Shown piece after piece: positions 7,383 to 29,164 of a DNA stretch of 64,000 nucleotides (positions are counted from its first letter, which is position 1; every line of letters starts with the position of its first letter). The notes under the pieces are model-generated. The model was not told the DNA's origin and did not search any database. It saw only the letters and a list, made by a program, of their open reading frames with translations. The DNA comes from Shigella phage vB_SdyM_006, in sequence record MK295204; one strand, written 5' to 3'. The position numbers and the translations under genes were made by a program.

Positions 7383-7395
7383 TCTTTAAGTTTAA

Positions 7396-7420
7396 AGCCC
7401 GGGAAACCGGGCTATTTTAT
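7396..7420 (+). terminator. terminator after major capsid gene
   Basis: AGCCCGG-GAAA-CCGGGCT followed by ATTTTATT. Confidence 0.7.
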
Positions 7421-7500
7421 TAATATTTTATCGTAAAGTATTAATAAAATATTTTAAACTCTAACAACTAAAAAGATTTATACTTTAAGAGAGAAATAAA

Positions 7501-8751
7501 ATGACCAATAAGATTCAAAAATTATTGCGCGAATCAAGTACAACAGCCAGTTCATCTAATGGACGTCCTGATCTTGTTGGGTTAACACGCGCAACACATG
7601 ATTTAATTTTTACAGATTTAATTGCAATACAGAATACAAATCAGCCAGAAGCGACTCTTTATGGTGTCAAATATTTAAATGACAATAAAGATATGAGTTT
7701 TATGACACCAGCTACATATTCTGGTGCTATAAAATCAAGAGAAAATATCGAAGAACTTGACCCATCTAAATCATATTCTAAAGATGATATGTTTAAATTT
7801 GAAGAAGTGGTTTATAAAGTCGTTAAAGATAATCCATTTACAGATTTGACGTCATTACCAAAAAATGAAGCTTTAGGCCAAGCAATTATAGATGGTTCTA
7901 TTAGATTTATGTCTGAAGCGGCATTAACTGGGCATTTTGAAAAGAAAGACGTAGAAATAGCAGAAGCTTCTGTCAGATTAGATCGTTGGAATATTCCTGT
8001 AAGAACAAGAAAAATTAAAACAGAGCTCACAGTTGAATTTGCTCAAGACTTAAATTCAAACCAGTTTGAAGCAGGTGCCGTAATTGATGACATGTTAGCT
8101 ACTATTTTAGCTGAAGATGTTAATAAAGACGTTATCCAAAAAATTATGACTGTTTCTAGTCGATATAAGGTTAAAGGAATTTCTGATAAAGGAATGTTAG
8201 ATTTAACCAAAACGGATGTTGCTCCTGAACAAGGACGTACTTTATATCGTTATATTTGTGAAATGAATGCGTCTATCGAAAGAAATACAACTTATGATGG
8301 GACATATGTTTTAGCTAGTTCAAGATGTGCTGCTATTTTGTCTGCATCAGGTTGGATGGATATTAATCCTGATTATCCTTTAGCCGCTGGCACACTTAAA
8401 AATGGCTTACCTGTTTATTCTGACCCTTGGTCTCCTGTTGACTATGTAGTTGTAGGAACTAAACAAAACCTTGGTGAGCTAGAACATGTAGGTTCTTTAT
8501 TCTATGCACCTTATATTGATTTTGATGGCGCAGGTGCTTATAAATTAGTTGTCGATCCAGATAGTTTACAACCTAAACTTGCTTTAATGGTCCGATATGG
8601 GTTATCAATTAATCCATATACAGTCATTGAAGTAGACGAAACACCTCAAAAAGAATCTATGTTAGTTCAAGGTGATGATTGGGACAATTTAGTTGGTAAG
8701 TCTAAAATGTCATATATTTTAGGTGTTCAATTACCTAAACTTATAGAATAA
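7501..8751 (+). CDS. 24: capsid vertex protein (gp23 paralogue)
   Basis: 416 aa, directly downstream of gp23; C-terminal pattern RYGLSINPY echoes the gp23 fold. Confidence 0.88.
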   Translation: MTNKIQKLLRESSTTASSSNGRPDLVGLTRATHDLIFTDLIAIQNTNQPEATLYGVKYLNDNKDMSFMTPATYSGAIKSRENIEELDPSKSYSKDDMFKFEEVVYKVVKDNPFTDLTSLPKNEALGQAIIDGSIRFMSEAALTGHFEKKDVEIAEASVRLDRWNIPVRTRKIKTELTVEFAQDLNSNQFEAGAVIDDMLATILAEDVNKDVIQKIMTVSSRYKVKGISDKGMLDLTKTDVAPEQGRTLYRYICEMNASIERNTTYDGTYVLASSRCAAILSASGWMDINPDYPLAAGTLKNGLPVYSDPWSPVDYVVVGTKQNLGELEHVGSLFYAPYIDFDGAGAYKLVVDPDSLQPKLALMVRYGLSINPYTVIEVDETPQKESMLVQGDDWDNLVGKSKMSYILGVQLPKLIE

Positions 8752-8765
8752 TTTATTTAATTTCC

Positions 8766-8806
8766 GGTAATTTATTACCTTTTTTGGGAACTTCGGTTCC
8801 CTTTTT
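8766..8806 (+). terminator. tandem terminators after gene 24
   Basis: GGTAA-TTTA-TTACC + TTTTTT, then GGGAAC-TTCG-GTTCCC + TTTTT. Confidence 0.75.
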
Positions 8807-8807
8807 A

Positions 8808-9371
8808 TTAGAAAAAATCATCTAATGTAAACTCTTTATATCCTATCATTTCTTTGAATTCGCACATCACTATTGGGTTATATAAATTATAAGTCTTTAT
8901 CCCTAAATAACGTGCTAGATAAACAGCTGTTCTTGTCCCTCCAGAAACATTCCCATATTTATCCTCAGGTGCCCAAAATATAACTGAATCAACAGGATTT
9001 TCTAAAGTAGGTGTTAATATTTGCATACAATTTCTACATTGAAGATGTTTAACAGTTTTAGAAACACTGTCTAATTTAGGATAAAATCTTCTTATAATAT
9101 TAGCGGCTTTTTCTTGGATTTCGTCATTAAAGTCTGTAAATATATGAACACCATTCCCAGAATAGTGATTATTGAACCCCTGGTGAGGAATAATAACACA
9201 TTTATTTTCAGATGAGTATTTCTTCATAAACAAATAATCACTCCCAGGCGCTCCTCCTGATGTTCCTAGCACTCCTAAATTAGAAATATATTCTCCACCA
9301 CTTATTAAAATATTAGATAAACGACTTGGTATTTTTCTTGACCCTATTAAAGCTACAGAATTTTTAACCAT
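8808..9371 (-). CDS. SLOG/DprA-like Rossmann-fold protein
   Basis: N-terminal pattern LIGSRKIPS...GTSGGAPGSD and C-terminal GGTRTAVYLARYLGIKTYNL resemble the DprA/LOG/YpsA (SLOG) glycine-rich nucleotide-binding loops; motif-level call only. Confidence 0.45.
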   Translation of the reverse strand: MVKNSVALIGSRKIPSRLSNILISGGEYISNLGVLGTSGGAPGSDYLFMKKYSSENKCVIIPHQGFNNHYSGNGVHIFTDFNDEIQEKAANIIRRFYPKLDSVSKTVKHLQCRNCMQILTPTLENPVDSVIFWAPEDKYGNVSGGTRTAVYLARYLGIKTYNLYNPIVMCEFKEMIGYKEFTLDDFF

Positions 9372-9380
9372 GCTAACCTC

Positions 9381-9400
9381 AAAAAGGACCCGAAGGTCCT
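9381..9400 (-). terminator. hairpin terminator 14 nt upstream of SLOG-like gene start
   Basis: AGGACC-CGAA-GGTCCT with T-run on minus strand. Confidence 0.55.
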
Positions 9401-9405
9401 TTAAT

Positions 9406-9561
9406 TTATTGTAAAGCTAAAATTAAACCCACAATAATAAACCATAACACAAACCCAATCCATAATGGTGATAACACCCATAGCCAAGACCAAGCAATGA
9501 CACCAACTAGTTTTAAAACAATAAACACAATACCTAGTACACCCAAAAATCCAATTTTCAT
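9406..9561 (-). CDS. small hydrophobic protein, 51 aa, likely membrane-embedded
   Basis: My own translation: MKIGFLGVLGIVFIVLKLVGVIAWSWLWVLSPLWIGFVLWFIIVGLILALQ; start 2 nt after upstream gene stop; followed by a hairpin terminator; below the ORF-track length cutoff. Confidence 0.35.
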   Translation of the reverse strand: MKIGFLGVLGIVFIVLKLVGVIAWSWLWVLSPLWIGFVLWFIIVGLILALQ

Positions 9562-9562
9562 A

Positions 9563-9808
9563 TTACCAACCTGTTATTTGTATTATATTAGAATCAAATT
9601 GGGTTCTTTTAACAGTTAACCCTTCGTTTTGTAATTTTGTAATAACTTTCTCTTGGACTCGGTATGAGATTTCACCTAGAGTCCAAGTTAAACTATCATA
9701 CCCATGTTTAGATTTAAGCATTAATCGCTTTGCAATATCATTAAACACCTGTTTAGATTCAAGCTCAACTAAGCTATCTTTAGAATCTTTTAATTTATCA
9801 ATAAACAT
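9563..9808 (-). CDS. hypothetical protein
   Basis: 81 aa ORF tightly packed downstream of rnlB. Confidence 0.4.
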   Translation of the reverse strand: MFIDKLKDSKDSLVELESKQVFNDIAKRLMLKSKHGYDSLTWTLGEISYRVQEKVITKLQNEGLTVKRTQFDSNIIQITGW

Positions 9809-9815
9809 AATAAAC

Positions 9816-10820
9816 CTATTTTGTAATTAAATTGACCCAATCTTTTCGAATGAATTCTTGTATTTCTTTTTGAATAGATTTCTTGATTAATGCTGGGTCA
9901 TCGTAATCAAGAATATCATGCCCGTCTTTTAACATATCTTTTAAAACATCCTGCATCATTAGACCTTGAACTTTGCCAAAATCTTTTGAAGATATTTCGC
10001 CAACATGGCTAATCACATTAGATAAACGTTGTGCAGTGATATATGATGTAGAAAAATTAACCAGTTCTTGGTCGTCATTTGATAATTCTGGTGTAGGTCT
10101 AATTGTTTTTACTTTACCAGTTTCTTTGAACTTAGCATTTTTACATTTAAAAATTACACGGCTTTTATTATTGAACTGTGTTGGAGTAATAGGTTTAAGA
10201 ACATAACCTTCTGCAATATTTTCTGAACCTTCTTTTTGAGGACCAAATACGTGGGCATTTGCAGCCGGAATACCATGTTCTTTTACTATTGCATTAAATT
10301 CTGGGATTAAAGAATCAAATGAACGCTCTAAATTACTTAATTCATCAAAGTCACCAGTTAAAATAACAGGGCAGATTTTAAGATTTGTTTTAGAAGATAA
10401 CATTCTTAAAAATAAAGCATCTACTAAATCACCATTAATTAAAATATCAAATACCCAGAAATCTTTTTCTTCGTAATCTACTTCTCGTTGAATACCAGGG
10501 CCTGCATATTCGCCAAAGACTGTTAAAAGTTCTAAGTCAGGCATTGATTCTTTAACAGTATTAAACATGTCAAGAATGTTTTGTTTATAACGCTTTAAGA
10601 TTAATTCGTATCCAAAAAATGCTTCAGATTCACCAATAAGATTAGTTCGTTTTGCACAAACAACATCTACACCATCACAAATAAAACTAAAATTAGTCCC
10701 ATGTATTTTTTCTTGGGCAATCCAAGGAATACCTGGTGCTGTTTTTCCTTCAAAAAAGGCCTTTTCTACTAATTTAGTGTTATCAATATTTTCAATAGAA
10801 TCATATTTAATAAATTGCAT
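9816..10820 (-). CDS. rnlB: RNA ligase 2
   Basis: 334 aa; nucleotidyltransferase lysine motif KIHGTN, plus blocks GYVLKP and KCKN-KF and GKVQGLMMQDVL matching T4 Rnl2. Confidence 0.9.
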   Translation of the reverse strand: MQFIKYDSIENIDNTKLVEKAFFEGKTAPGIPWIAQEKIHGTNFSFICDGVDVVCAKRTNLIGESEAFFGYELILKRYKQNILDMFNTVKESMPDLELLTVFGEYAGPGIQREVDYEEKDFWVFDILINGDLVDALFLRMLSSKTNLKICPVILTGDFDELSNLERSFDSLIPEFNAIVKEHGIPAANAHVFGPQKEGSENIAEGYVLKPITPTQFNNKSRVIFKCKNAKFKETGKVKTIRPTPELSNDDQELVNFSTSYITAQRLSNVISHVGEISSKDFGKVQGLMMQDVLKDMLKDGHDILDYDDPALIKKSIQKEIQEFIRKDWVNLITK

Positions 10821-11156
10821 TTATACCTCAAACAATCGTATTTTAAGACTAGTTGTATATTTGATTTCTAAATTATAAACTTTACCACTATAAACAACAA
10901 GAATTTTATTTGGGTTTTCTTCACACCACATTATATTATCGTCATTAATAATGTTTAAAAATTCTAGCTCTGAATAACAAGCCCACGAGAATGATTTACT
11001 TAAAAACTCTTTTAAATCAAGCCAATCGGTTTCGTCACAAATAGCAGGACTCATAACAGCAAGTTTGTGGGTATATGTTTCTTTATCACACCAACGAGTA
11101 AAAAACACTTCACGTTTTTCTTCTAAAGGAATAACACCAGCAGTATACCAAGACAT
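10821..11156 (-). CDS. hypothetical protein (paralogue of next gene)
   Basis: C-terminal NKILVVYSGKVYNLEIKYT aligns with NSILVLYIGESTQLEVKFT of 11166..11450. Confidence 0.4.
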   Translation of the reverse strand: MSWYTAGVIPLEEKREVFFTRWCDKETYTHKLAVMSPAICDETDWLDLKEFLSKSFSWACYSELEFLNIINDDNIMWCEENPNKILVVYSGKVYNLEIKYTTSLKIRLFEV

Positions 11157-11165
11157 AATAATTCC

Positions 11166-11450
11166 TTATTTGATTGGGATGATTCTAAATTTGTATTCAC
11201 CGCCACGAGTAAATTTAACTTCTAACTGAGTTGATTCACCAATGTAAAGAACCAAAATTGAATTTTTATTAGAACGTAACCAGTCTTGATATTCTTCAAA
11301 AGACTTGCGTAAAGATGGGATGCTATTTTTATATCGGCCTAAAATAGTCCATGAGAATTCACCACTGCCCATCCATTTAGTGGAACGGTCATATTTTAAA
11401 AGGTTTTCAATATCAATATTTAACCATGTTTTAAAGTTTTCTTTAATCAT
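11166..11450 (-). CDS. hypothetical protein (paralogue of previous gene)
   Basis: 94 aa; shared C-terminal motif with 10821..11156. Confidence 0.4.
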   Translation of the reverse strand: MIKENFKTWLNIDIENLLKYDRSTKWMGSGEFSWTILGRYKNSIPSLRKSFEEYQDWLRSNKNSILVLYIGESTQLEVKFTRGGEYKFRIIPIK

Positions 11451-11650
11451 TTTCTTACCTTCATTCGTTTACGATAAACTACTTTTTCGCGAGTTTTAAA
11501 TTCCTTCTGTTTTTGTTCAACTTCAATATAAACAGAAGCCATTTCTTTAGCTGTTCCACCCATTTTTCTGGCTATATCAACAAAGTGCATACCTTGTTGT
11601 TTAAGAAAGTGGATTTTTATTTTATCATGATTTGTCATTATTTTCTTCAA
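11447..11650 (-). CDS. hypothetical small basic protein
   Basis: 67 aa ORF; 4-nt overlap with downstream gene. Confidence 0.35.
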   Translation of the reverse strand: MKKIMTNHDKIKIHFLKQQGMHFVDIARKMGGTAKEMASVYIEVEQKQKEFKTREKVVYRKRMKVRK

Positions 11651-11831
11651 AATCTTTACAGATATCCAAGAGTTTTTTGTTTAAAGCTTCAACAAATTCT
11701 GTAGCTGAATCAGGGTATTCGTTAAATAAATAACACAAATACTCACTATGTATTTCATGGGCCACTTGAGAAACCATAGTCTTAAGTTCTTTATTCATAT
11801 AATCACCTCTCAATAATGTGTATTCTATCAT
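11625..11831 (-). CDS. hypothetical protein
   Basis: 68 aa ORF; overlaps both neighbours by about 26-29 nt, so the true start may be internal. Confidence 0.3.
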   Translation of the reverse strand: MIEYTLLRGDYMNKELKTMVSQVAHEIHSEYLCYLFNEYPDSATEFVEALNKKLLDICKDFEENNDKS

Positions 11832-12237
11832 CTAAAATATCATTAAGCATAGGACCAATGACATCCCAATTTAAGCCACCATTAGAACACCCTGGTTTAG
11901 GCAGGAGAACTCTTTTAAAATTGTTATTAGATACTATCTCCATTAATTCTAATGCACTCTTACGTATCAGGTCTTTATCAGACTTGTTATACCAATCATG
12001 TTTAGTAGGAAATGATATTAAATTAATGTTATTATATTTCGTAAGAATTCTGCATACATGGCCGTATTGGATTAAGGATTTAGCCATGATTAAGTCTAAA
12101 TTAGGAACCTTCAACGAAAAGAGACGGGCAATTCCGGCTCCCATAACAGCTCTTTTATTTTTCTTGATATTCATGTTTGTTGTAATGCAAATAGCATCAC
12201 AAGGGATATCAAGAATATTTCCAGATACTATTTTCAT
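11803..12237 (-). CDS. macro-domain protein (ADP-ribose binding/hydrolase fold)
   Basis: 144 aa; N-terminal GNILD-x4-DAICITTN and glycine loop AVMGAGIA, C-terminal LLPKPGCSNGGL, resemble macro-domain signature loops. Confidence 0.55.
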   Translation of the reverse strand: MKIVSGNILDIPCDAICITTNMNIKKNKRAVMGAGIARLFSLKVPNLDLIMAKSLIQYGHVCRILTKYNNINLISFPTKHDWYNKSDKDLIRKSALELMEIVSNNNFKRVLLPKPGCSNGGLNWDVIGPMLNDILDDRIHIIER

Positions 12238-12656
12238 AAAGCTTCTTTTAAAACTTCTATAGCATGCTTAATTTCAAAAGGGATACCTTCTGATGGATGC
12301 TGGCGAATGTTATCGTCAATATGACTAAAATCCATGCCAATTACACGGACTTTATATTTTTGCTCACTATCAAATTCTGATATATTAGAACCCCAAGTGT
12401 TTGATGATGTAACTTCTTTAGTCTCAAAATAAGTACATCCACAATGACAATATTCGTGCCAAAAATCACAGTCTTTATCAAATAAAGGGTGGTCTTCGCG
12501 AAGAGTTAAATATACCGCATAACTCCAATCCGGACGACCATCATTAAATAAAGCTTTATAACTAGGTGGTAATCCTGTAAACCATGAAGTAACTTCAATA
12601 GCTTCGCCTTTCTTTTTATCTGCATGAACAGTGTATACATATTTTTGAATAGACAT
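12234..12656 (-). CDS. hypothetical protein with His/Cys cluster
   Basis: 140 aa; contains WHEYCHCGC (HExxH-like plus Cys cluster); start overlaps stop region of downstream macro gene by 4 nt. Confidence 0.45.
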   Translation of the reverse strand: MSIQKYVYTVHADKKKGEAIEVTSWFTGLPPSYKALFNDGRPDWSYAVYLTLREDHPLFDKDCDFWHEYCHCGCTYFETKEVTSSNTWGSNISEFDSEQKYKVRVIGMDFSHIDDNIRQHPSEGIPFEIKHAIEVLKEAL

Positions 12657-12854
12657 TTATTTTACCTCAATAATAGTGAGTTCAGTATCTTCTGTCAAAT
12701 CACAAAAGTCAAAAGCCAATGCAGCAATACCTGGGTATTCTGATTCGTCAATAATACATTCAGTATTATTATTTTTGATGTCTAAGGCTAATTGATAATT
12801 AGACGTAGTAAATCCAAGTTCAAGTTCTTCGCACCATACGGTATACTTTTTCAT
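12657..12854 (-). CDS. small protein, tandem paralogue A
   Basis: 65 aa; aligns along its length with 12855..13049 (VWCEE, GF-T--YQLA, C-terminal IEVK). Confidence 0.45.
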   Translation of the reverse strand: MKKYTVWCEELELGFTTSNYQLALDIKNNNTECIIDESEYPGIAALAFDFCDLTEDTELTIIEVK

Positions 12855-13049
12855 TTATTTTACCTCAATGAGTTCACAATCGTATAAACAACTACACAGT
12901 TCACAAAAAGAATAAGCCGATGCATATGAATCAGTGTCTATCCAAAACCCAAGATTATCAATAGCACCTTTACGAACTTCATAAGCAAGTTGATAATCAA
13001 CTGTTTCAAATCCAATTTTCTTTTCTTCGCACCATACTATATATTTCAT
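12855..13049 (-). CDS. small protein, tandem paralogue B
   Basis: 64 aa; paralogue of 12657..12854. Confidence 0.45.
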   Translation of the reverse strand: MKYIVWCEEKKIGFETVDYQLAYEVRKGAIDNLGFWIDTDSYASAYSFCELCSCLYDCELIEVK

Positions 13050-13894
13050 GAGTATTCCTTGTCATAATAAGAATCTGGAGTAAAAATATTTAACATATTT
13101 GTAGAATTATCAATAGTAATAATATTTTCCTGTTCAACTTCAGGTGTATAATATTTTAAAAACTCTTCTTTAACGTATTTTACTGGATCACTTTTATAAT
13201 CGTCAGTAGAAATATCAAATAATTCAATTGTATACGTATCAAGCCATTTTTCAGAACATGTTAATCGTCCACATAATAATCCATCATAAACGATAGCATA
13301 TTCAATATGGCCCCATTTATATGAGCTATCAGCGTCGTGTCTGATTAGATAAAACTTAATATCAGAATTCTCACAATCATCACTAATATTGTCACGAACA
13401 TCGTATTCATTGAGCTCGGTCAATTCACTTAAAGCATTAATAAACAGGTTTTTATATTGAGGGCCAGTTACTAACTTATCTTCTGTTAGTTCTTTCTCAA
13501 TAAATTCTTTTAAAGTTAAAACTGGCAATTCATACTTAGGAAATAATGCAGTTTCAGTAATAGTGCCGATATTCAATTCGGCCAATTTCTTAATAACAGA
13601 ATCTTCAGCTTTATCAGAATCAGTCCAAATATGAAGAACTTTAAAATTATGATTATTCCAAATTTTTTGTGGGTCAACATCAATCACATCTTGGGTTTTA
13701 GACAAAAACATTAAAAGGTAATCAGAATCATTCCACCCTACTGGGTTTTCGTATTTTTGAATGACTAGATATTGGAAATCAGTCATTAATGCATTATATC
13801 TTTCTTTAGAAGCTAAAGAAGTAGAATCCATAGATGAAGAAAAAGCTTCAATAACACTAGCTGGGTTTTTAATTAACATTTTGAATAGTCCCAT
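13046..13894 (-). CDS. hypothetical protein
   Basis: 282 aa ORF, no recognisable motif. Confidence 0.5.
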   Translation of the reverse strand: MGLFKMLIKNPASVIEAFSSSMDSTSLASKERYNALMTDFQYLVIQKYENPVGWNDSDYLLMFLSKTQDVIDVDPQKIWNNHNFKVLHIWTDSDKAEDSVIKKLAELNIGTITETALFPKYELPVLTLKEFIEKELTEDKLVTGPQYKNLFINALSELTELNEYDVRDNISDDCENSDIKFYLIRHDADSSYKWGHIEYAIVYDGLLCGRLTCSEKWLDTYTIELFDISTDDYKSDPVKYVKEEFLKYYTPEVEQENIITIDNSTNMLNIFTPDSYYDKEYS

Positions 13895-14115
13895 GTGATT
13901 TTAACACGATCATGATATATTACTCTATCATGGCTTTTTGAAACTGTAAATCCTTTTTCTTTAAGAATTTCAATCAACGCATCTTTAATGGCTTCATTTT
14001 CTGGAAGCTTTGCGTAATGCTCTGTACTATCATGCAAAGCCAGTTGGCAAATATCATTTAACACAATAGCTAAATTGTGTTCAACAACAGTATTTTTAAG
14101 ATCAGATAAATTCAT
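13873..14115 (-). CDS. hypothetical protein
   Basis: 80 aa ORF, first gene downstream of a putative minus-strand early promoter. Confidence 0.4.
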   Translation of the reverse strand: MNLSDLKNTVVEHNLAIVLNDICQLALHDSTEHYAKLPENEAIKDALIEILKEKGFTVSKSHDRVIYHDRVKITWDYSKC

Positions 14116-14149
14116 ATTATTCTCACAGTTGCGAATTGATGATGTGTAT

Positions 14150-14177
14150 ACTATATTATAAAATAGTGTTTGTAAAC
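14150..14177 (-). promoter_or_regulatory. putative divergent early promoter (GTTTAC-N16-TATAGT)
   Basis: GTTTAC on minus strand (plus 14172-14177) with TATAGT 16 nt downstream; weaker match. Confidence 0.3.
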
Positions 14178-14200
14178 ATCTAAAATAATTTAAAATAAAT

Positions 14201-14229
14201 GTTTACTTTTGCTGTCATTATGATATTAT
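14201..14229 (+). promoter_or_regulatory. T4-type early promoter (GTTTAC-N17-TATTAT)
   Basis: -35 GTTTAC 14201-14206, 17-nt spacer, -10 TATTAT 14224-14229; part of a conserved cassette. Confidence 0.6.
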
Positions 14230-14271
14230 ATACATATTGAAACGAAACATGAAAAACAAATGGAGTATATT

Positions 14272-14616
14272 ATGAATAAGACACAAATCAATGCAGTTTT
14301 AAAAACTTTAGGTTATGGTAATTTACGTTATTCTAATGGTAAAACATACCGCAGAGGAAACTCTATGGTTAAAGGTTTTCATTTAATTTCTACTGGTGCA
14401 TGTATGGTGACTTCACCAGAAACACAAAAATTTAGTGATCTTGTTAATGAGTTAAAACAACATTTTGAATTACAATCATATTATGACAATTGCATGGCAA
14501 TATTTGTGACAGGAAAATTAAAAATTGTTGTTTGTTTAACAAATTTTAATACATACGGTGGCTTAAACCCAGATTATAAAACATGGTTTGCATCTGTTAA
14601 TATTGAAAAGTTATAA
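14272..14616 (+). CDS. hypothetical protein, lone plus-strand gene in an accessory island
   Basis: Start placed at the second ATG, preceded by GGAGTATAT as in two other copies of the same promoter-leader cassette; own early promoter upstream and bidirectional terminator downstream. Confidence 0.5.
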   Translation: MNKTQINAVLKTLGYGNLRYSNGKTYRRGNSMVKGFHLISTGACMVTSPETQKFSDLVNELKQHFELQSYYDNCMAIFVTGKLKIVVCLTNFNTYGGLNPDYKTWFASVNIEKL

Positions 14617-14620
14617 AACA

Positions 14621-14645
14621 AAAATGGGACCGTAAGGTCCCATTT
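14621..14645. terminator. bidirectional terminator between plus-strand island gene and gene 54
   Basis: TGGGACC-GTAA-GGTCCCA flanked by A-run and T-run. Confidence 0.7.
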
Positions 14646-15560
14646 TCAAATTAATCTTGTTACAGCTCCTATTCCTCCTCCAGCACCACCTAATCTTGTT
14701 AAATTTCTTAATGAAGAGCTTAAAGAGTTTTCTTCTGAAATTGTATCTATGGCACCAATTGCTTTTGATTCTAACCAATCAAGAGCTGCTTGCCTACCGA
14801 CAGAACCTACCTGCATCACCCTGTATGCGAATGTAACATCAAAAACAGCAATAGTATTATTATCTTCATATGAAAGTTCAGGAGCACCTACCGACATAGG
14901 AACACACCCTGTGAACATGGCAACAGTATGTGGAAGACCGTTTCTATTGTGTAAATTAACCTGGATATCGGCTTCAACATCTATAGGTAAAGCACGTAGT
15001 CCTGTGATTGGGTCTTCAACTGAATTCACCCAATCTTGCATAGCTCGATAATTACTTGCTTCTGAATCCATCCTAAACGAAATTATCAACGGGTCATATT
15101 CTCTAGATAGAACTTTTATATTAGGTGAATTATGATTTTTATCCATCTCATAAGATAGTCTGTTTTCTGGTAATTTGACAGAATAAACCATTAACCCAGA
15201 TGTTGGAAATGCCATATTAAAGAAATCTAATAGATAAGTCCCTACTTCAAATTCTCCTAATAATGATTGAACCACACGATTAGACATGGCTCCTAAAAGA
15301 TATTTAGAAACACCAGATTTTCTCACTAGTTTTTGAGTACCAGCAACAACTAGACTTGATACTGCACTAGTTACATCATTTTGAGATATTCCAAGAAAAT
15401 CTGTATCTATAGGTAAATTGTTAAACAAAAAACCACCAAAATTATCTAAAAGCTCATTAGTTTTTGATGATGGGGCTGTGGCAAAAACAACACTAAACAT
15501 GTTTGTTCTTTGGAAGTCAAGATTGACAGCTTGGCTTTTAAATTCTTCTAATGTATACAT
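14646..15560 (-). CDS. 54: baseplate tail-tube junction protein
   Basis: 304 aa; last gene of the 51-27-28-29-48-54 hub series, matching T4 order and length (320 aa). Confidence 0.75.
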   Translation of the reverse strand: MYTLEEFKSQAVNLDFQRTNMFSVVFATAPSSKTNELLDNFGGFLFNNLPIDTDFLGISQNDVTSAVSSLVVAGTQKLVRKSGVSKYLLGAMSNRVVQSLLGEFEVGTYLLDFFNMAFPTSGLMVYSVKLPENRLSYEMDKNHNSPNIKVLSREYDPLIISFRMDSEASNYRAMQDWVNSVEDPITGLRALPIDVEADIQVNLHNRNGLPHTVAMFTGCVPMSVGAPELSYEDNNTIAVFDVTFAYRVMQVGSVGRQAALDWLESKAIGAIDTISEENSLSSSLRNLTRLGGAGGGIGAVTRLI

Positions 15561-16603
15561 TATAACAATCCTTCTGCAAACAAAGTTCCACGATTTAGTG
15601 TTAAAATCTCTCTAAACGTTATTTCAAGAGTAAACGTACTTGGTAAATTTGGGGCCATGGCTAGACCATTAAAATGTCCATTAGGAGATTTGTCAAATCT
15701 TATACTAGAAATCTGGGCTGGTCCAAATATATCAGTTCGGCCATCATAAGAAGATGTTTTACCAAAATTTCGTATAACCCATATTGTTGGGTTACTTACA
15801 ACAAGAACATTAGTTAAAAAACTTGTAATATTTTCCAATATTGTTCCTGAAGTATCAGCACCGTCTGGGGTATTAGGATTTATTAATGTTGTTTTATACC
15901 ATTCATCAATAGCGGCTTTAATTTCTTTAGCAAATTTAGACACACCTGTTTCACCATAAGAGAAATAACTAAATATTTCGTAAATATACAAAATTTGTAT
16001 AAGGTCTTGTGGAGTCCTTGGTGTTAAATGCCAGGTAAAAACTTTAGTTCTATTATCCGCTCCAGCATACATAGATCTAGCTGTAGTATAAATTTGTTCG
16101 CCTTTATCAGCCATAATTCCTTGTGTAATCGAATCTAATGCACCAAAAACAGCCGTTGACGCAACATTACTCAAAGCACCTGTTACGCTACCACCACCTT
16201 TAGTTAATAAAGAATCTCCAACATCATTAAATCTATGAGAAATGTTATCTACGTCAGATTGACTTCTTGGCATTAATATATTAGCAACAGATTCTTGACT
16301 AAAGGTGGTTGTCCCACCTTTTTTAGAAAAATCAATATTAATTGCGTCAACGGCATTTTGTTTTTTTCTAAAGTCTCTTAATGAGCCTGTATCGCGTGCA
16401 TTATAATTATATGCAGTAAATAACAGCCCGTTTTTATATAAGTCATTAAGTCTAAAATCTAAAGCATTATCTGTACCAGAGGCTCGTTCTGCTGGAAACT
16501 GAGCCACTAATGTTTTGGTTTGAGTATTTGTTGGATTAGAAGACCCAGCAGATATTTTTGTTCCTATTTTCTCTACTTCTTCATCCAGAACTTTTATTTT
16601 CAT
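15560..16603 (-). CDS. 48: baseplate tail-tube cap protein
   Basis: 347 aa; position between gp29 and gp54 as in T4 (364 aa). Confidence 0.75.
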   Translation of the reverse strand: MKIKVLDEEVEKIGTKISAGSSNPTNTQTKTLVAQFPAERASGTDNALDFRLNDLYKNGLLFTAYNYNARDTGSLRDFRKKQNAVDAINIDFSKKGGTTTFSQESVANILMPRSQSDVDNISHRFNDVGDSLLTKGGGSVTGALSNVASTAVFGALDSITQGIMADKGEQIYTTARSMYAGADNRTKVFTWHLTPRTPQDLIQILYIYEIFSYFSYGETGVSKFAKEIKAAIDEWYKTTLINPNTPDGADTSGTILENITSFLTNVLVVSNPTIWVIRNFGKTSSYDGRTDIFGPAQISSIRFDKSPNGHFNGLAMAPNLPSTFTLEITFREILTLNRGTLFAEGLL

Positions 16604-18324
16604 TAATTAACCTCTAAAGCTTTATACATGCCAGGAGCAGCATATCCTGTTACAGGATTTTGTTGAATAACAGTCTTATTATTAGCTACATTGTTTTGGA
16701 CATTAGCTGTATTTGTGGTCGTTTGAGATGATGTTTCTGTTGTTTCTATATTATTGATATTTTCTGCACTTGTGTAAGCTTGAGATTCTTTAGGATCTTC
16801 AGGTTTAATAGATGGGATCTGCTCTAATAACAAATCTGATCTATCTAATGCATCTATTCCTAATTTATAATAATCCGAATCGACTTCAACATCTTGGTTA
16901 TCAACAATAGAACTTGCAAGTTCTCTTAATTCGCCAGCTATTTTAGTTAAAGCCTCTGGGTTATTTCTATGAGCTTCAGATAAGGCCATTAATTGATTTA
17001 ATCTAGCTTCAGTTTTTACTTGTTCTTCTATATCGCCCATTTCTGGTGCAGATTCATCTTGCTTTTTAGCTAAAGCAATAGCCCTATCAGCATCTTCTCT
17101 ACTTATAACATTATTTTTTACATAAGTGTTTGCAGCTTCTTCTATAGACCCACCTGTAAATCTTGCTCTAGCTTTTATCATTGATAAATAGCCTTCATCA
17201 TCACTTTTGGCGGTATTTCTAATGTCGTTACCACGAACTTTAGCCATTAACTTAAGTTCATCTTCGTTAGGCATATAACCTGTATTTTTATTATATGCTT
17301 CTATAGTTGCAACTTCTAATTCGTCAGCCCAGTCGTCCTGCCCTATAGCTCGTAATAATGAAGATAACATTTTTCCTAATGCGTACTGTAAGCCTTGTAA
17401 AAGATTTTCTAAAACGTTTACCATACCTTTTACAATGGCTAATGCTAAATTACCAAAATCGCCTTCTTTCCAGAATTTTTTGACATCTTCTAGTGTAGCA
17501 AATATAGAACGCAATATCGGGGCTAGTGGTCCAAGTTTTTCTTCAAAATCGTCAAAGGCTTCATTAAATAATTTACCCCAATATTTAAAATGAATCATTA
17601 TAAGGTCCATAGCTAATACTATAGCCAACATTATTGCTGCCCATTTGGCAGCAAACAACGCCGCTGTTACAGTGTATTTAAACAACATATCAGCTATTCT
17701 GTTTGTCATCCCATAAGCAGATTTGAACCCAGTTTTAACATTTTTATTTAAAGAATTTAAAACTTTAGATAAAGAGTCTTTTTCTTTATTGTCATCTTTA
17801 GGTTCTTTCTTTTTCTTCTCTTCTTCTGGGACCGGTGCTCTATCGACGTCATCTCTTCTAATAACAAGGTCTTTAATAGCAGATTCTAGTTTATTATCTT
17901 CAACCGGAACAGGGAGTTTAGAAAAAGCTTCTTCGGTCTCAGAAACTTCTGGTTCTACAATTTCCTGTTTTTCTGGTTTAAATTTTTCTTTTAACATATT
18001 ACTTAATTTAGATATGTTCGAAGAAAAAGAATTTGATAATTTAGAATTACTTGTTGCTAAGTCTTTTAAGTTATTATTTGTTTCTTGACTAGAATCTATT
18101 AATAACTCAACACCAGCTTGAACATCTTCTACAGAAGAAACAACTTTAGAAGTCCCAGATTCTACGGTTTCTGCAACTAGCTCAATACCATTTGATAAGT
18201 CATCTAAAGAATCAGAAACATTAAGCATAGAGTTAGCAACATTTTCTTGGCCTTTAGATTCTTTAGATATTTTATTTTTTTCTTCTATTACTTTATTTCT
18301 TCTAAACGAATCAGGTGTTTTCAT
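16603..18324 (-). CDS. 29: baseplate hub / tail length determinator
   Basis: 573 aa vs 590 in T4; position after gp28; low-complexity Ser/Asn-rich segments and a central hydrophobic stretch. Confidence 0.75.
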   Translation of the reverse strand: MKTPDSFRRNKVIEEKNKISKESKGQENVANSMLNVSDSLDDLSNGIELVAETVESGTSKVVSSVEDVQAGVELLIDSSQETNNNLKDLATSNSKLSNSFSSNISKLSNMLKEKFKPEKQEIVEPEVSETEEAFSKLPVPVEDNKLESAIKDLVIRRDDVDRAPVPEEEKKKKEPKDDNKEKDSLSKVLNSLNKNVKTGFKSAYGMTNRIADMLFKYTVTAALFAAKWAAIMLAIVLAMDLIMIHFKYWGKLFNEAFDDFEEKLGPLAPILRSIFATLEDVKKFWKEGDFGNLALAIVKGMVNVLENLLQGLQYALGKMLSSLLRAIGQDDWADELEVATIEAYNKNTGYMPNEDELKLMAKVRGNDIRNTAKSDDEGYLSMIKARARFTGGSIEEAANTYVKNNVISREDADRAIALAKKQDESAPEMGDIEEQVKTEARLNQLMALSEAHRNNPEALTKIAGELRELASSIVDNQDVEVDSDYYKLGIDALDRSDLLLEQIPSIKPEDPKESQAYTSAENINNIETTETSSQTTTNTANVQNNVANNKTVIQQNPVTGYAAPGMYKALEVN

Positions 18325-18829
18325 TTTGGAATAATCCTAATATGTCGTCGCCATAAACAACTTTGTCTTCAAGGTTTATAGCAATACTTTTTCCAAGTTC
18401 ATCAGCCCATTTATACACAAAAGCTGGCATACTACCAAAATCAACTTTTTCTAAACATAATGTTTCTAAAAGTTCTTTAGCTGAAGTGAATCTTTCTCCT
18501 GGTAATATGTCTCTAAATTTATATTCTTTTCCTTGATAAGTAAATTTAGGTGTTGGTAATAGATAAACATCATTTATTGAGTAAGTTTTATCTTTATATA
18601 CGAATGTGTCTGTACATTTACCATTAAATTCGGCTAAATGAAGCAAGACTAAATGAGCTTCTTTAAATGACAAATTTTTATCTACAGAATCAAGAACTAT
18701 TTTTAAAGTATCTTCTGGAGATTTAGCTTCTTTGAATTTGTCATAATAATTAAGTCCGAGTTTAGGAATTGTTAATTCTTTTCCATTTATATTAATCTTC
18801 TTCAGTGGAAGAATTATCTTTAATTTCAT
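18311..18829 (-). CDS. 28: baseplate hub distal subunit
   Basis: 172 aa vs 177 in T4; position between gp27 and gp29. Confidence 0.65.
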   Translation of the reverse strand: MKLKIILPLKKININGKELTIPKLGLNYYDKFKEAKSPEDTLKIVLDSVDKNLSFKEAHLVLLHLAEFNGKCTDTFVYKDKTYSINDVYLLPTPKFTYQGKEYKFRDILPGERFTSAKELLETLCLEKVDFGSMPAFVYKWADELGKSIAINLEDKVVYGDDILGLFQNENT

Positions 18830-19937
18830 TTTTTACCTTAATATGATCTACTGGTTTAAGAATTTTACTATTACTGAACATGTAAATATGTGTAAAACTC
18901 TGATTATTAGACATTTCATGTATAACAGAATCTACATAAAAAGTACTTAAGAACTGATTCTTAGGGTCATAGAATTCTAATTTATTTCCAGGCGTTATAT
19001 CAAAATCCCCATAAGTTGTACATTTTGCATAGGAATCATATTGAGCCATTGTATTTAATTTAGTCGCTTCTTCATACCCATTTCTAAATAACTGATCTGA
19101 ATACCCGCCATTTCTCGAAACTAAAATAGAATTTTCGCCATTTCCATTCACTATCCTAGTACAAGTTTTATCAATCATACTAAAAGAATATATAGTCGAG
19201 TTTTCGTATGGGTTTCTATTATGAGAATTTGTTTTTGTTATCCATTCAAAATCATATGCAAGTGGATATTCAAGTTGATCTGCAAATTGTCCAACCATTA
19301 ACGGTTCTCCGACTACCATTTCCTTAACTTTTGAATTAATGATTTGTTGGAAATCTGTGACGTGGATCCCATTAAAATCATCCCAAACCAAAGCAAACAT
19401 ATCAGATGCAACAGAAATACCAGTATCTCTAACATAGTCCATATATTCCTTAATTCCAAGAACCCATGGAACTAAAGGAACGTGAATATTCGTGCCAGTG
19501 ATCGTAGGTTTCAATAAAGGGGTGTCGGTATATAAAACATTTATCATTTCTTCTATAGTCTCTGTGGCGTTCTTGAAGAACACTCGACTAAATTTAAGAT
19601 TTTTATTTTTATACGGTGGAATCAATTGCATTGTAATAATGTTATCGCCTTTTTGATCAACTGATACAGAAGAATATTTTACGGCATAAATTCTATTTTT
19701 AGTTATTGATGTATTTGCATTACCTACAGAAATTTGGATTATTTGGTCTCCATCTAATTTAGTATGCATATTTTTATGATCGTAAATTTGTAACATCCCT
19801 TCGTTGGTCCCGTATAAATCATCTCTAATTGTCAACGAAGTAAAAGTTCCTGCTAATTCTATAAATCGGTTTTCTAACCAAGCATCATAACTTTGGTATA
19901 ATTTTATCGATATATTAGGATAACCCACCTTTTGCAT
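18792..19937 (-). CDS. 27: baseplate hub protein
   Basis: 381 aa vs 391 in T4; position after gp51. Confidence 0.8.
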   Translation of the reverse strand: MQKVGYPNISIKLYQSYDAWLENRFIELAGTFTSLTIRDDLYGTNEGMLQIYDHKNMHTKLDGDQIIQISVGNANTSITKNRIYAVKYSSVSVDQKGDNIITMQLIPPYKNKNLKFSRVFFKNATETIEEMINVLYTDTPLLKPTITGTNIHVPLVPWVLGIKEYMDYVRDTGISVASDMFALVWDDFNGIHVTDFQQIINSKVKEMVVGEPLMVGQFADQLEYPLAYDFEWITKTNSHNRNPYENSTIYSFSMIDKTCTRIVNGNGENSILVSRNGGYSDQLFRNGYEEATKLNTMAQYDSYAKCTTYGDFDITPGNKLEFYDPKNQFLSTFYVDSVIHEMSNNQSFTHIYMFSNSKILKPVDHIKVKNEIKDNSSTEED

Positions 19938-20688
19938 GTTTTTTGTCCTTTAAATCTTTTTCTATTAATGCTAATGTGATTGTCCTGTTCATTGGGGTCA
20001 TTTTCTCTATATCGTTTAGAGAATAGCCTTGTTTAACCATGATATGATTAATTTTATAAAATGCTATAATTTCCTCTTCAGACAAAATTATTTTAAACAG
20101 GTCTAAAATGTTTCTATATACCATTTCGTGAGTATCACAACAACTAAATTTAACAGGGATATAAATTGGATATATCTCTTTTATTATTTGTTCAAAATCA
20201 TCTAGAGAAATAACAGACATAACAAGATTTTTATTCTCTTGGTCTAAATCTTCCCATATATAAGAACCATTATTGTCTTCAATTTTATATATACAGCTGT
20301 CAAATAATTTTTTTATATCAGTTGTCATTATATCTGTAAAATCAAAATGAATTTTTATTCCTGAAGTTTCTAGAACAGGTCTTTTAAGTCTTTTCAATTC
20401 TAAGTTTAAAAAGGTCTTCTTTTCTTTACCACATTTAGGGCATTTAAAACGTATAGGAAGAACAGATTTACCAATAGATGAAGTAAACCAAATTATAAAT
20501 GCATAAGCTCTATATATTTTTGGCATATAAGGAAATGACTCTTCTAATAATTCATCTAGTATTTGTTCTGCTTCTTCTTGATTTTTTTCTATTTCACTCC
20601 GTACAAATAATAATTGTAAATAATCATCATTAGTAAACTGACGAATTCTGTATGTTTTTTCTGGTGTGACTATTCTTATTATGTTCAT
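19915..20688 (-). CDS. 51: baseplate hub assembly protein
   Basis: 257 aa vs 249 in T4; divergently arranged from gp26 with a shared late-promoter region; contains CPKCG and CCDTHE motifs. Confidence 0.65.
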   Translation of the reverse strand: MNIIRIVTPEKTYRIRQFTNDDYLQLLFVRSEIEKNQEEAEQILDELLEESFPYMPKIYRAYAFIIWFTSSIGKSVLPIRFKCPKCGKEKKTFLNLELKRLKRPVLETSGIKIHFDFTDIMTTDIKKLFDSCIYKIEDNNGSYIWEDLDQENKNLVMSVISLDDFEQIIKEIYPIYIPVKFSCCDTHEMVYRNILDLFKIILSEEEIIAFYKINHIMVKQGYSLNDIEKMTPMNRTITLALIEKDLKDKKHAKGGLS

Positions 20689-20704
20689 AGTGTCTCCTCT
20701 TATT

Positions 20705-20712
20705 TATTTATA
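20705..20712 (-). promoter_or_regulatory. late promoter TATAAATA for gene 51 (divergent, overlapping)
   Basis: Exact octamer on minus strand 17 nt upstream of ATG 20688; overlaps the plus-strand octamer by 4 bp. Confidence 0.5.
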
Positions 20713-20716
20713 AATA
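20709..20716 (+). promoter_or_regulatory. late promoter TATAAATA for gene 26
   Basis: Exact octamer 18 nt upstream of ATG 20734. Confidence 0.6.
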
Positions 20717-20733
20717 GATAAAAAGGAGACACT

Positions 20734-21318
20734 ATGTTTGAAATAACATGTAACGACATAACATACAACGCTAGATATTTCACTCTAGACGAATACGAGG
20801 ACGTTCTTAATAAAATAACTGATAATAATATTAAAGACGCCATTAGTGGGCTCTTAATTGATTGTATAGACTCCTACGATACAAACTTGCCTAAACACTA
20901 TGCAGAATGTATTTTTCTTAAATTATGGGCTCACAGTTTAGGTGGAGTAACTAAAGAACTAAATGATATTTTTGTTAATTTTAATTATATAGAAACACCT
21001 AAAGAAAAAGGATTTATTTACAAATTAGATGGATTGAGTCTCAAAATGAGATATCCAAAATTATTTGAAGACTCTGATAAATTAGAAATGGTCATAAATT
21101 GTATTGACTCAGTATTATTAGAAGACCAAACAGAAATTAAAGCTTCAGAGCTTTCTTCAGATGATTTAAACGTTTTATATTCATACTTGACGAAAGACGT
21201 AATTTTTTCGTTAAGAGACGAATTACTTAGACCTAAACCGTATATCGCTTTTCCTGTTGATGACGAAATTAAAACAATAGAAGGGTTTAAAAATTTATTA
21301 GAGGTGATAGATGAGTAA
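20734..21318 (+). CDS. 26: baseplate hub subunit
   Basis: 194 aa vs 208 in T4; immediately upstream of gp25; TATAAATA late promoter 18 nt upstream. Confidence 0.7.
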   Translation: MFEITCNDITYNARYFTLDEYEDVLNKITDNNIKDAISGLLIDCIDSYDTNLPKHYAECIFLKLWAHSLGGVTKELNDIFVNFNYIETPKEKGFIYKLDGLSLKMRYPKLFEDSDKLEMVINCIDSVLLEDQTEIKASELSSDDLNVLYSYLTKDVIFSLRDELLRPKPYIAFPVDDEIKTIEGFKNLLEVIDE

Positions 21319-21697
21319 AATGAATGTTTTATATTCTGACTTAGACCCTAAAATGGAAAAAGGCTGGGATAAAGACCTGCATAAAGTCGTAGGAGATAGG
21401 GCTGTCAAAAATTCTATTCTAGGAATAATTAGTACTAGGAAAGGGTCTAGACCCTTTGACCCAGAATTTGGGTGTAATATAACAGACCAATTATTCGAAA
21501 ATATGAGTCCATTAATAGAAGACACTATAGAGCGATCTATAGTTTCGGCTATTAAAAATTATGAGCCAAGAGTACAAAGATTAAAAGTTTCTGTTACTGC
21601 ATTGTATGATTCAAATTCTATAGTTGTAGATATTATTTTTTCTATTGTAGATAATCCAGACACATTAGAACAGATAAAAGTTCAATTATCAAAATAG
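21311..21697 (+). CDS. 25: baseplate wedge protein (lysozyme-like fold)
   Basis: 128 aa; blocks LYSD-DP-M, TRKGSRPFDPEFGC and NYEPR--L-V match T4 gp25. Confidence 0.9.
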   Translation: MSKMNVLYSDLDPKMEKGWDKDLHKVVGDRAVKNSILGIISTRKGSRPFDPEFGCNITDQLFENMSPLIEDTIERSIVSAIKNYEPRVQRLKVSVTALYDSNSIVVDIIFSIVDNPDTLEQIKVQLSK

Positions 21698-21936
21698 TTT
21701 ACTATAGTTATTAATTTATTACTTAATAGTTATATATAATATATAAAGAACTTAATAAAATAATAAAAATTCTGGAGCTGCGCTCCAGATTTCTTTAGAA
21801 ATAGTAACATATAGTTATTAATTTATTACTTAATAGTTATATAGAATATACTATACTTTTAATAAATTAATTTACTAGAGTTACTATTAATAGGCTATTA
21901 TAATAAAATGGTTATAATGAATCATTTGGAGGAACT
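21698..21936. repeat. composite AT-rich intergenic repeat element, copy A (gp25/uvsY)
   Basis: Contains two copies of ATAGTTATTAATTTATTACTTAATAGTTATATA plus a stem-loop; near-identical modules at 58498..58703 in swapped order. Confidence 0.8.
21772..21788 (+). terminator. stem-loop inside composite repeat, downstream of gene 25
   Basis: CTGGAGC-TGC-GCTCCAG. Confidence 0.4.
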
Positions 21937-22347
21937 ATGAATTTAGAAGAATTACAAACAATGTTATCAGAAGATTTAAGAATTGATCCATTAAAACTTC
22001 AATATGAAGCTGCAAATAATCCAACATTATATGGAAAATGGTTAAAAATTTATTCTGATATAAAGAAAGGAATTATTTCTTATGAAGCTAATAAGAAAAA
22101 ACTTTTAAAACAAAGATTAGACCATTATACTGGACGTGGTGATGAAGTGTGTATGGACTTATATGAAAAATCAGAACTTAAAACTGTTATTGCAGCTGAC
22201 CCAGAAATTTTGAAAACACAAACATCTGTGGAATATAGAACATTATTATTGGATTTTGCATCAAAAGCTTTAGATGCTATTAAAGCCCGTGGATTTAGTA
22301 TTAAGCACATTCTAGAATGTAGACAATTTGAGGCAGGAACAAAATGA
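21937..22347 (+). CDS. uvsY: recombination mediator protein UvsY
   Basis: 136 aa; LQYEAANN, YTGRGDE, YEKSE-KTV, LLDF-S-ALDAIK-RGF-IKHI match T4 UvsY. Confidence 0.9.
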   Translation: MNLEELQTMLSEDLRIDPLKLQYEAANNPTLYGKWLKIYSDIKKGIISYEANKKKLLKQRLDHYTGRGDEVCMDLYEKSELKTVIAADPEILKTQTSVEYRTLLLDFASKALDAIKARGFSIKHILECRQFEAGTK

Positions 22348-22715: not shown

Positions 22716-22720
22716 AAAAT

Positions 22721-22746
22721 AAAAGACGAGGGTTACTCGTCTTTTT
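22721..22746. terminator. bidirectional terminator between uvsY.-2 and uvsW.1
   Basis: AAAAGACGAG-GGTTA-CTCGTCTTTTT. Confidence 0.65.
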
Positions 22747-24453: not shown

Positions 24454-24467
24454 TACTTTCACCTTGT

Positions 24468-24475: not shown

Positions 24476-24481
24476 CATATA

Positions 24482-24489: not shown

Positions 24490-24508
24490 CAAAGCCTAAG
24501 AGGACATT

Positions 24509-26060: not shown

Positions 26061-26090
26061 AAAAGGGACCAATTGGTCCCTTTTTATTTT
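26061..26090. terminator. bidirectional terminator after hoc-like gene
   Basis: A-run, GGGACC-AATT-GGTCCC, T-run. Confidence 0.7.
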
Positions 26091-28773: not shown

Positions 28774-28813
28774 AATATACTCCGTTGTTTCCGTGTGTTG
28801 TTTCAATATGTAT

Positions 28814-28842
28814 ATAATAACATGTCTACAGCAAAAGTAAAC
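28814..28842 (-). promoter_or_regulatory. early promoter (GTTTAC-N17-TATTAT), cassette copy
   Basis: Minus-strand GTTTAC (plus 28837-28842), 17-nt spacer, TATTAT (plus 28814-28819). Confidence 0.6.
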
Positions 28843-29098: not shown

Positions 29099-29135
29099 TA
29101 TATACTCCATTTTCGTATGTTGTTTCAATATGTAT

Positions 29136-29164
29136 ATAATAACATGTCTACAGCAAAAGTAAAC
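29136..29164 (-). promoter_or_regulatory. early promoter (GTTTAC-N17-TATTAT), cassette copy
   Basis: Minus-strand GTTTAC (plus 29159-29164), 17-nt spacer, TATTAT (plus 29136-29141); directly follows a terminator hairpin. Confidence 0.6.

Follow-up and report, generated by a model that had tools for sequence, protein, structure and literature searches.

We report here that a small open reading frame (ORF) in the genome of Shigella phage vB_SdyM_006 (record MK295204), of which a stretch of 64,000 nucleotides (the window) was analyzed, stands as a unit of its own on the plus strand, preceded by an early-type promoter and followed by a hairpin that it has in common with the convergent gene 54. 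Our reading, to which we give a probability of about 65%, is that this is a self-contained monocistronic early unit whose coding part is swapped and whose product would be a dispensable factor of early host interaction, in host takeover or anti-defense. Briefly, host sigma-70 RNA polymerase would start at the strong T4-early-type promoter, a short unstructured leader and a GGAG site would give efficient early translation of the ORF, and transcription of the ORF as well as the late transcription of gene 54 coming from the other side would end at one palindromic hairpin. Promoter/leader and terminator, both of them repeated elements of the genome, flank the coding part, which related phages exchange by homologous recombination, and the product would bind a partner of negative charge, be it RNA, DNA or an acidic surface, via its conserved lysine-rich N-terminal third. 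Coordinates of the features are collected in Table 1.

The ORF and its expression signals

The ORF encodes 114 amino acids and not 113, the length given in a preliminary description of this DNA. Its product is 100% identical to phiP43_086 of Proteus phage phiP4-3, where the annotation is the same. The start was placed at 14272 because of the spacing of the ribosome-binding site (GGAG, 6 nucleotides upstream of the ATG) and because of the aligned N-termini of homologues; an in-frame ATG at 14260 is unlikely as the start. The ratio of nonsynonymous to synonymous substitution rates is 0.11-0.30 among the close alleles of the phages Pm5461, PM2, and SJ_PmiM, and the ORF is a real gene under selection. 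No paralogue of its product was found within the window.

The promoter has the form GTTTAC-17-TGATATTAT, with TG at 14221-14222 and TATTAT at 14224-14229. The pattern GTTTAC-N17-TATNAT has four matches in the window against 0.18 expected, and the 20-mer TATTATATACATATTGAAAC has three copies (14224 on the plus strand, 28819 and 29141 on the minus strand) against 0.07 expected. From the −35 box to the ATG, the cassette of roughly 70 nucleotides occurs three times in the window, the one before the ORF being 82-84% identical to the copies at 29164 and 28842 and 78-79% identical to the orthologous cassettes; the promoter elements are kept upstream of the orthologues in Pm5461, SJ_PmiM, PM2, and the metagenomic contig L013. 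The pattern, the 20-mer counts, and the cassette alignments together bear out what the preliminary description had said, i.e., that the ORF is driven by a copy of an early cassette. The leader is unusually unstructured (minimum free energy −0.9 kcal/mol vs a shuffle mean of −4.25), and the sequence upstream of both −35 boxes in the divergent region is 100% A/T, over 25 nucleotides in the case of the ORF promoter. No stable stem-loop was found upstream of the ORF promoter in 14110-14205 (fold z 0.06); the cassette copy at 29099-29164 has one upstream of its promoter (agagccgaaaggctct plus a T-run).

Two other promoter classes were considered and rejected for the ORF. A T4 middle (MotA-dependent) promoter does not fit, the TGCT at −25 to −22 being in the wrong place for a MotA box, which is centered at −30, and a T4 late (gp55) promoter does not fit either, with no TATAAATA nearby and none between 5706 and 20705. 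Canonical T4-type late promoters (TATAAATA) are seen before alt (28521-28514, right after a terminator; region 28500-28560, minus strand) and, back to back, between uvsW and inh (24468-24489), and the Pm5461 record annotates promoter features at positions matching those near alt and uvsW/inh.

The hairpin behind the ORF is stable on both strands (−17.3 kcal/mol, z −5.0, on the plus strand; −17.8 kcal/mol, z −4.3, on the minus strand), and with its final base it reaches into the stop codon of gene 54. Its stem is invariant in all Bragaviruses compared (the set is given below), and its loop is different in most of them. As the U-run on the ORF side is just TTTT, a simple terminator scan called it only on the minus strand. 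The bidirectional terminator of the preliminary description is thus right as to the hairpin, which is strong on both strands, and less so as to the U-run, with just four T on the ORF side vs TTTTTGTTTT on the minus strand, for gene 54; the ORF-side run has five T in phiP4-3 and six T in Pm5461.

Some further observations were made on this hairpin and on the leader. The stem recurs at the convergent junction behind hoc, and both hairpins have a common layout, AAACAAAAA-[T/A]GGGACC-NNNN-GGTCCC-T-run, at the two late/early convergent junctions of the window. Together they bracket exactly the block from hoc to gene 54 (14646-26056), which is inverted relative to T4; such bracketing palindromes could be recombination substrates. 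The 4-nucleotide loop (14632-14635; also 26071-26074) is hypervariable, with five versions in six genomes: GTAA (window and PM2), TTGT, TTAC, TAAC, and AATT. The window and phiP4-3 have 0 differences in 13750-14631, yet three of the four loop bases and one T indel differ, and the PM2 loop GTAA and the Pm5461 loop TTAC are reverse complements, i.e., a flip of the loop. In the 5′ untranslated region of the ORF, the 10-mer TTGAAACGAA (14237-14246) lies 22-26 nucleotides before the ATG, as it does in Ackermannviridae homologues; among the compared loci it is found at L003 4980-4989, L007/L008 2980-2989, and L009 2969-2978 and nowhere else. We did not take this sharing as meaningful: coincidence or a generic feature is the probable cause, as ATTGAAAC is present in all three cassette copies and the Pm5461-type orthologues do without the 10-mer.

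Protein family and possible function

The product matches PHROG 13016 (E 2.2e-47, residues 1-113 on profile positions 1-118 of 119) and is a full-length yet divergent member of this family, which itself has no assigned function. The preliminary description found no recognizable motif in the protein; this is true for Pfam, NCBIfam, and PDB sequences, none of which gave a match; the protein does belong to PHROG 13016. A profile built from nine phage homologues and searched against 1.84 billion representative proteins gave 75 clusters at E ≤ 1e-3, nearly all of 110-150 amino acids, and recovered the ORF product at 3e-40; the relatives that were rescanned all fall in PHROG 13016, and none of 71 family members scanned has a Pfam domain. 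A word-indexed protein search had the ORF product itself as its sole match, a search for related loci with a small alignment gave known phages only, an Rfam scan gave nothing near any gathering score, and a literature search found no paper naming PHROG 13016 or the protein accessions.

The AlphaFold model (AF2) is confident (predicted local distance difference test 89.5, predicted template modeling score 0.81). In it, a helix at the N-terminus is followed by a short hairpin region of irregular shape; then come one strand, another helix, and four more strands. The family is basic throughout, its median isoelectric point (pI) being 9.3; of its members, 93% exceed pI 8, and the conserved basic positions are K3, K11, K/R19, K27, K31, and K34. 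From the family we derived the signature K-x3-N-x2-LK-x2-G ... K-x2-KGI ... GPM-T-x-T ... FP-x-Y ... D-x2-Y, of which the window allele has the N-terminal helix motif, the KG, and Y102, with K31, P43, P93, and D99 replaced by S, A, N, and N, respectively. Among the structural matches were ones of the KA1 type, with about 61-71 residues superposed at 2.3-3.3 Å; the resemblance is weak. The KA1/KA-1 domains (the C-terminal domains of MARK, Chk1, and AMPK-alpha, KA-1 of TUT1, and the VCR of METTL16) are alpha+beta sandwiches of similar size with a basic surface, and RNA-binding KA-1 domains are among the matches. Domains of this kind bind acidic phospholipids or RNA.

Three nucleic-acid-related candidates were rejected. 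The N-terminus LGYGNLRYSNGKTYRRG superficially resembles GIY-(10-11)-YIG, but a GIY-YIG nuclease has neither a Pfam match nor the nuclease fold in its support; a SAP/HeH/Rho_N-like N-terminal helix has no Pfam support and just one helix is predicted; and a free-standing homing endonuclease (GIY-YIG or HNH) would need a catalytic motif or domain match, of which there is none.

We consider the product most likely a polyanion-binding early host-interaction factor, and we infer that it is neither an enzyme nor a virion part. For host takeover or anti-defense specifically, we see about one chance in three. This view of the function builds on the early expression, the dispensability, the allelic turnover, the basic surface, the weak KA1-like resemblance, and the occasional anti-defense/NAD-salvage neighbors of family members. 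The main alternative function is that of a phage-directed regulator, i.e., a small basic nucleic-acid binder with its targets in the DNA or early mRNAs of the phage itself, in a role like that of T4 RegA or DsbA. The uniformly basic family with its conserved Lys-rich N-terminal third, the RNA-binding KA-1 domains among the KA1-like matches, and the early expression signals are all in keeping with such a regulator, but a patchy and dispensable occurrence (10 of 236 Ackermannviridae at one site, absence from Providencia phage PSTCR6) is unusual for a core regulator, and an allele identity as low as 41-52% in one genus suggests an arms-race target over a conserved phage nucleic-acid site; we therefore regard the regulator as unlikely, if still the strongest competitor of a host-interaction factor.

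Alleles and exchange within Bragavirus

In phiP4-3, Pm5461, PM2, SJ_PmiM, and L013, a family member sits in exactly the same slot with the same promoter and terminator; these four sequenced genomes and one metagenomic contig make up the Bragavirus set of this study. The alleles form three groups with 41-52% amino acid identity, compared with 95-98% for gp54 and gp48. Between SJ_PmiM and PM2, the ORF is 97.5% identical in nucleotides and the flanking genes 54/48 only 86-89% (Fisher p 3e-10), and between SJ_PmiM and L013 it is the other way around, the ORF being 68% identical and gene 54 91% (p 2e-20). These identity islands change over at the terminator on one side and at the promoter/5′ end on the other. 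They show that the coding part is swapped among related phages by homologous recombination.

It could be argued that the ORF is a vertically inherited, fast-evolving, lineage-specific Bragavirus gene rather than exchanged cargo, as the identical slot, promoter, and terminator in four Bragaviruses and the metagenomic contig would suggest. We find this improbable, because rate variation alone cannot give both similarity patterns, i.e., an ORF far closer than its flanks (SJ_PmiM vs PM2/Pm5461) and one far less close (SJ_PmiM vs L013); moreover, the ORF is absent in PSTCR6 and homologues are found at unrelated sites in other families.

The preliminary description took the gene for horizontally acquired, independently expressed cargo and regarded conservation in place among all relatives as the observation that would speak against this. 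At the genus level, we did find it conserved at this position and in the same context in all Bragaviruses compared, and this genus-wide occupancy therefore indicates a resident hypervariable slot and not a recent one-off acquisition in the window phage. The autonomy of the unit, the exchange, and the absence from PSTCR6 agree with the cargo part of that description.

Occurrence in other phages

Providencia phage PSTCR6 has the same inverted layout without the ORF, a state that is compatible with loss of the ORF or with its later gain; the ORF may have come in with the inversion or been inserted after it. The presence or absence of the gene in related phages, a check that the preliminary description had proposed, gave a patchy and non-syntenic picture in Ackermannviridae and other Straboviridae in addition to this absence. 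The Ackermannviridae homologue is a terminator-promoter-gene-terminator unit that follows the major capsid gene in Taipeivirus Menlow and lies between the sheath and tube genes in some Kutterviruses; it is flanked by repeated CCCCGC..GCGGGG hairpins, and its promoter motif recurs elsewhere in those genomes. At the sheath/tube junction, a homologue was found in 10 of the 236 Ackermannviridae genomes matching the sheath gene. Other members are in the early small-ORF arrays of other Straboviridae, of a 263-kb phage, and of a phage of roughly 53-70 kb. A strong hairpin soon after the stop codon is present in 11 of 15 family loci (within 11 nucleotides in ten of them and at 27 nucleotides in one), a count to be read with no background rate. 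Judging from this distribution, the gene is probably dispensable.

The slot convergent with gene 54 is filled in T4 (alt.-3) and Yersinia phage TG1 (a 90-amino-acid ORF) as well, by unrelated ORFs. Homology to either was rejected (hhalign probability <1%, 0.07% for alt.-3). The topology is the same, i.e., a small early-strand ORF converging on the gene-54 end, but in T4 and TG1 the ORF forms the end of the transcription unit of alt, whereas the window ORF is a unit by itself and lies at the opposite side of the inverted block.

Such sporadic insertion between conserved genes would be explained if the ORF were part of a selfish homing element, either a DNA-binding helper or a remnant of free-standing homing endonucleases, and it is true that the homologue of Salmonella phage maane adjoins a 591-amino-acid homing endonuclease between sheath and tube and that LHE287 has a non-coding remnant of 416 nucleotides there. 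Yet the 71 members have no nuclease motif or Pfam match, the fold is not that of GIY-YIG or HNH, and no endonuclease gene adjoins the ORF in Bragavirus, Taipeivirus, and most other contexts, which makes a homing origin very improbable. Slightly less probable still is a virion-associated or assembly protein, despite its having structural genes for neighbors in three lineages (it follows gp54 in one and the major capsid protein in another, and lies between sheath and tube in the third). Its promoter is of the early type with no late promoter, terminators insulate it from the structural operons, it is convergent with gene 54, about 96% of Ackermannviridae do not have it at the sheath/tube junction, PSTCR6 does not have it either, and other members are located in early small-ORF arrays. 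Finally, a chance open frame in the spacer between promoter and terminator, for which nothing speaks except the missing database annotation, is already refuted by full-length homologues in 75 clusters, purifying selection, the confident fold, and the good ribosome-binding site.

Two side observations concern individual members of the family. Salmonella phage 38 has an early-region member after gene 46 (L009 3013-3348) that is annotated as an 81-amino-acid, N-terminally truncated protein; its open frame is nearly of full family length (E 6e-28), an intact 119-amino-acid form (P0007) exists in the protein database, and the short annotation likely reflects start-codon loss or mis-annotation. Distant members (L015 6941-11703, L014 4971-5459, and L024 7180-7611) lie near NAD-related and anti-defense genes, namely those for NMNAT-NUDIX, NAMPT, an Acb2/Tad1-hairpin protein, Tad3, and YAcAr (SLOG), an association with too few cases for statistics.

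Genomic context

The 3-kb region around the ORF is 97.2% identical to Proteus phage phiP4-3 (Straboviridae, Bragavirus), and genes 54 and 48 of the window are 85% identical to those of the Proteus phages SJ_PmiM, Pm5461, and PM2; by these similarities, the window is a T4-like phage genome of Bragavirus type. The identities of gp54 and gp48 (15560-16603, minus strand) are backed by Pfam and PHROG.

Table 1. Positions of the ORF, its signals, and related features in the window
Feature	Position	Strand	Remarks
114-amino-acid ORF	14272..14616	+	phiP43_086 orthologue; PHROG 13016; basic (pI 9.3); alpha/beta fold
Sigma-70/T4-early-type promoter	14201..14229	+	−35 GTTTAC 14201-14206; 17-nucleotide spacer; extended −10 TGaTATTAT 14221-14229
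Early cassette	14201..14271	+	Promoter, about 35-nucleotide unstructured leader, GGAG Shine-Dalgarno (14262-14265)
Second early-cassette copy	29099..29164	-	Drives 78-amino-acid ORF 28862-29098 between gene 30 and alt
Third early-cassette copy	28774..28842	-	Drives 69-amino-acid ORF 28564-28773 upstream of alt
Divergent early-promoter region	14116..14271		Between ORF (+) and first minus-strand early gene; from sequence, promoter scan, folding
Palindromic intrinsic terminator	14621..14646		AAAATGGGACC-GTAA-GGTCCCATTTT; common to ORF and convergent gene 54
Second terminator-stem copy	26065..26080		GGGACC-AATT-GGTCCC with same AAACAAAAA lead-in; convergent junction of hoc (+) and 26090-26419 (-)
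Gene 54 (baseplate tail-tube initiator)	14646..15560	-	Final gene of late operon 51-27-28-29-48-54; convergent with ORF
First gene of minus-strand early block	13873..14115	-	80 amino acids; divergent from ORF, common intergenic region

Along the window, gene 24 (+) is followed by an early-type minus-strand block (8808-14115) that includes RNA ligase 2, by the ORF (+), by genes 54, 48, 29, 28, 27, and 51 (−), by 26, 25, and uvsY (+), by uvsW (−), by inh and hoc (+), and, beyond hoc, by a small ORF, alt, and gene 30, all on the minus strand. In T4, the map reads 24 (+), rnlB/24.2/24.3 (−), hoc/inh (−), uvsW (+), uvsY/25/26 (−), 51 to 54 (+), and alt.-3 to alt to 30 (−). The T4 order hoc, inh, uvsW, uvsY, 25, 26, 51, 27, 28, 29, 48, 54 is thus exactly reversed in the window, and the entire hoc-to-54 block is therefore inverted as a single unit, with the ORF adjoining its gene-54 end. 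The location of the ORF at a boundary of the inverted block, which the preliminary description had claimed, is borne out by this comparison with T4 and by the ORF abutting gene 54, and so is the statement that it is the sole plus-strand gene between genes 24 and 26: the further plus-strand ORFs in 8752-20733 are all antisense inside minus-strand genes, and the phiP4-3 annotation has no other.

The neighboring early block is variable as well. Its first gene (13873-14115) is hypervariable, with 26-50% amino acid identity between Bragaviruses. Another ORF in it (13046-13894, minus strand, 282 amino acids) has no PHROG or significant Pfam match, and its region is unalignable with other Bragaviruses (about 30-45% nucleotide identity), which marks a further variable insert of the block. 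A 144-amino-acid ORF (11803-12237, minus strand) gave a borderline Macro-domain match (E 2.4e-4, 21.5 bits vs a cut-off of 22); it is intact in the window, SJ_PmiM, and PM2, the phiP4-3 annotation there being of 46 amino acids only, and it could be an ADP-ribose-related accessory gene. In a comparison of the window with phiP4-3 over 7000-22000, differences are concentrated in patches (10750-12000, 12500-13750, 15750-16000, and 21500-22000), the kilobases between them having 0-2 differences; recombination with other phages typically gives such a mosaic.

Relation to known accessory cassettes

The closest known system is described by the PeSL model (Arbiol et al. 2010, PMC2839356; Comeau et al. 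2014, PMC4122927), in which repeated early promoter/stem-loop elements in hyperplastic regions of T4-type phages serve as homology for the insertion, deletion, and replacement of ORFans. PeSL crossovers have been mapped as far as the hairpin loop (PMC2839356; PMC4122927), and inverse PCR on infected cells or virion DNA is the method for finding excised mini-circles formed by recombination between flanking elements (PMC2839356). The ORF unit resembles these cassettes in many respects: it has a repeated, strong, near-consensus sigma-70-like early promoter with an AT-rich upstream part and an associated stem-loop terminator; it lies in a hyperplastic region and holds a small ORF of unassigned function that differs between close relatives; its exchange breakpoints are at regulatory elements, with variation concentrated in the hairpin loop; and the other two cassette copies drive small unassigned ORFs between gene 30 and alt. 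It differs in that its stem-loop is downstream of the ORF and common with a late gene, whereas the composite PeSL has the stem-loop directly upstream of the promoter; in that its stem is GGGACC/GGTCCC and not polyG/polyC; and in that its slot, at the edge of an inversion, has a core late operon on one side and an early block on the other. On balance, we class the unit as a PeSL-like ORFan module of an ordinary sort; phage accessory cassettes of this kind are known.

A second comparison is with the phage "morons," a concept from lambdoid phages that denotes promoter-gene-terminator inserts between conserved genes. The autonomous promoter and terminator, the insertion between conserved genes, and the patchy occurrence are shared by the ORF unit. 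Morons are classically prophage-expressed, however, and the window phage is strictly lytic with a promoter of the early infection class.

Several points weigh against a swapped early unit with a host-interaction product, and we state them here together. The early timing of the ORF is deduced from the promoter type alone. On the ORF side, the U-run in the window is only TTTT, and the cassette departs from a textbook PeSL in that no stem-loop precedes its promoter. An anti-defense neighborhood is seen in only two of about ten independent contexts, in regions that are rich in small unknown ORFs. The window allele, moreover, does not have near-invariant residues of the family (K31S, P43A, P93N, D99N) and may have diverged or weakened activity.

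A bolder extension is that PHROG 13016 represents a new class of mobile early effector, i.e., a KA1-like inhibitor that binds polyanions and acts on a host nucleic-acid or defense component. Its promoter-gene-terminator cassette would travel between unrelated myovirus families (Straboviridae, Ackermannviridae, and jumbo phages), inserting at the terminator hairpins of highly expressed late genes, and the identical palindromes with hypervariable loops that bracket the 11.4-kb hoc-to-54 block would be substrates for both the inversion and the allele swaps. We consider this doubtful.

Current views are not overturned by the findings on this unit. If our reading is true, the unit would show, in a clean natural case, how T4-like phages retain a fixed socket for expression, with a repeated early promoter/leader at one end and a conserved terminator at the other, and exchange the coding insert. 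It would be relevant to accessory-gene turnover and to the engineering of Proteus phages, for which the socket would already offer an insulated site for early expression. The protein family, uncharacterized, with a confident predicted fold and widespread in large lytic myoviruses, is a reasonable candidate for host-takeover and anti-defense screens.
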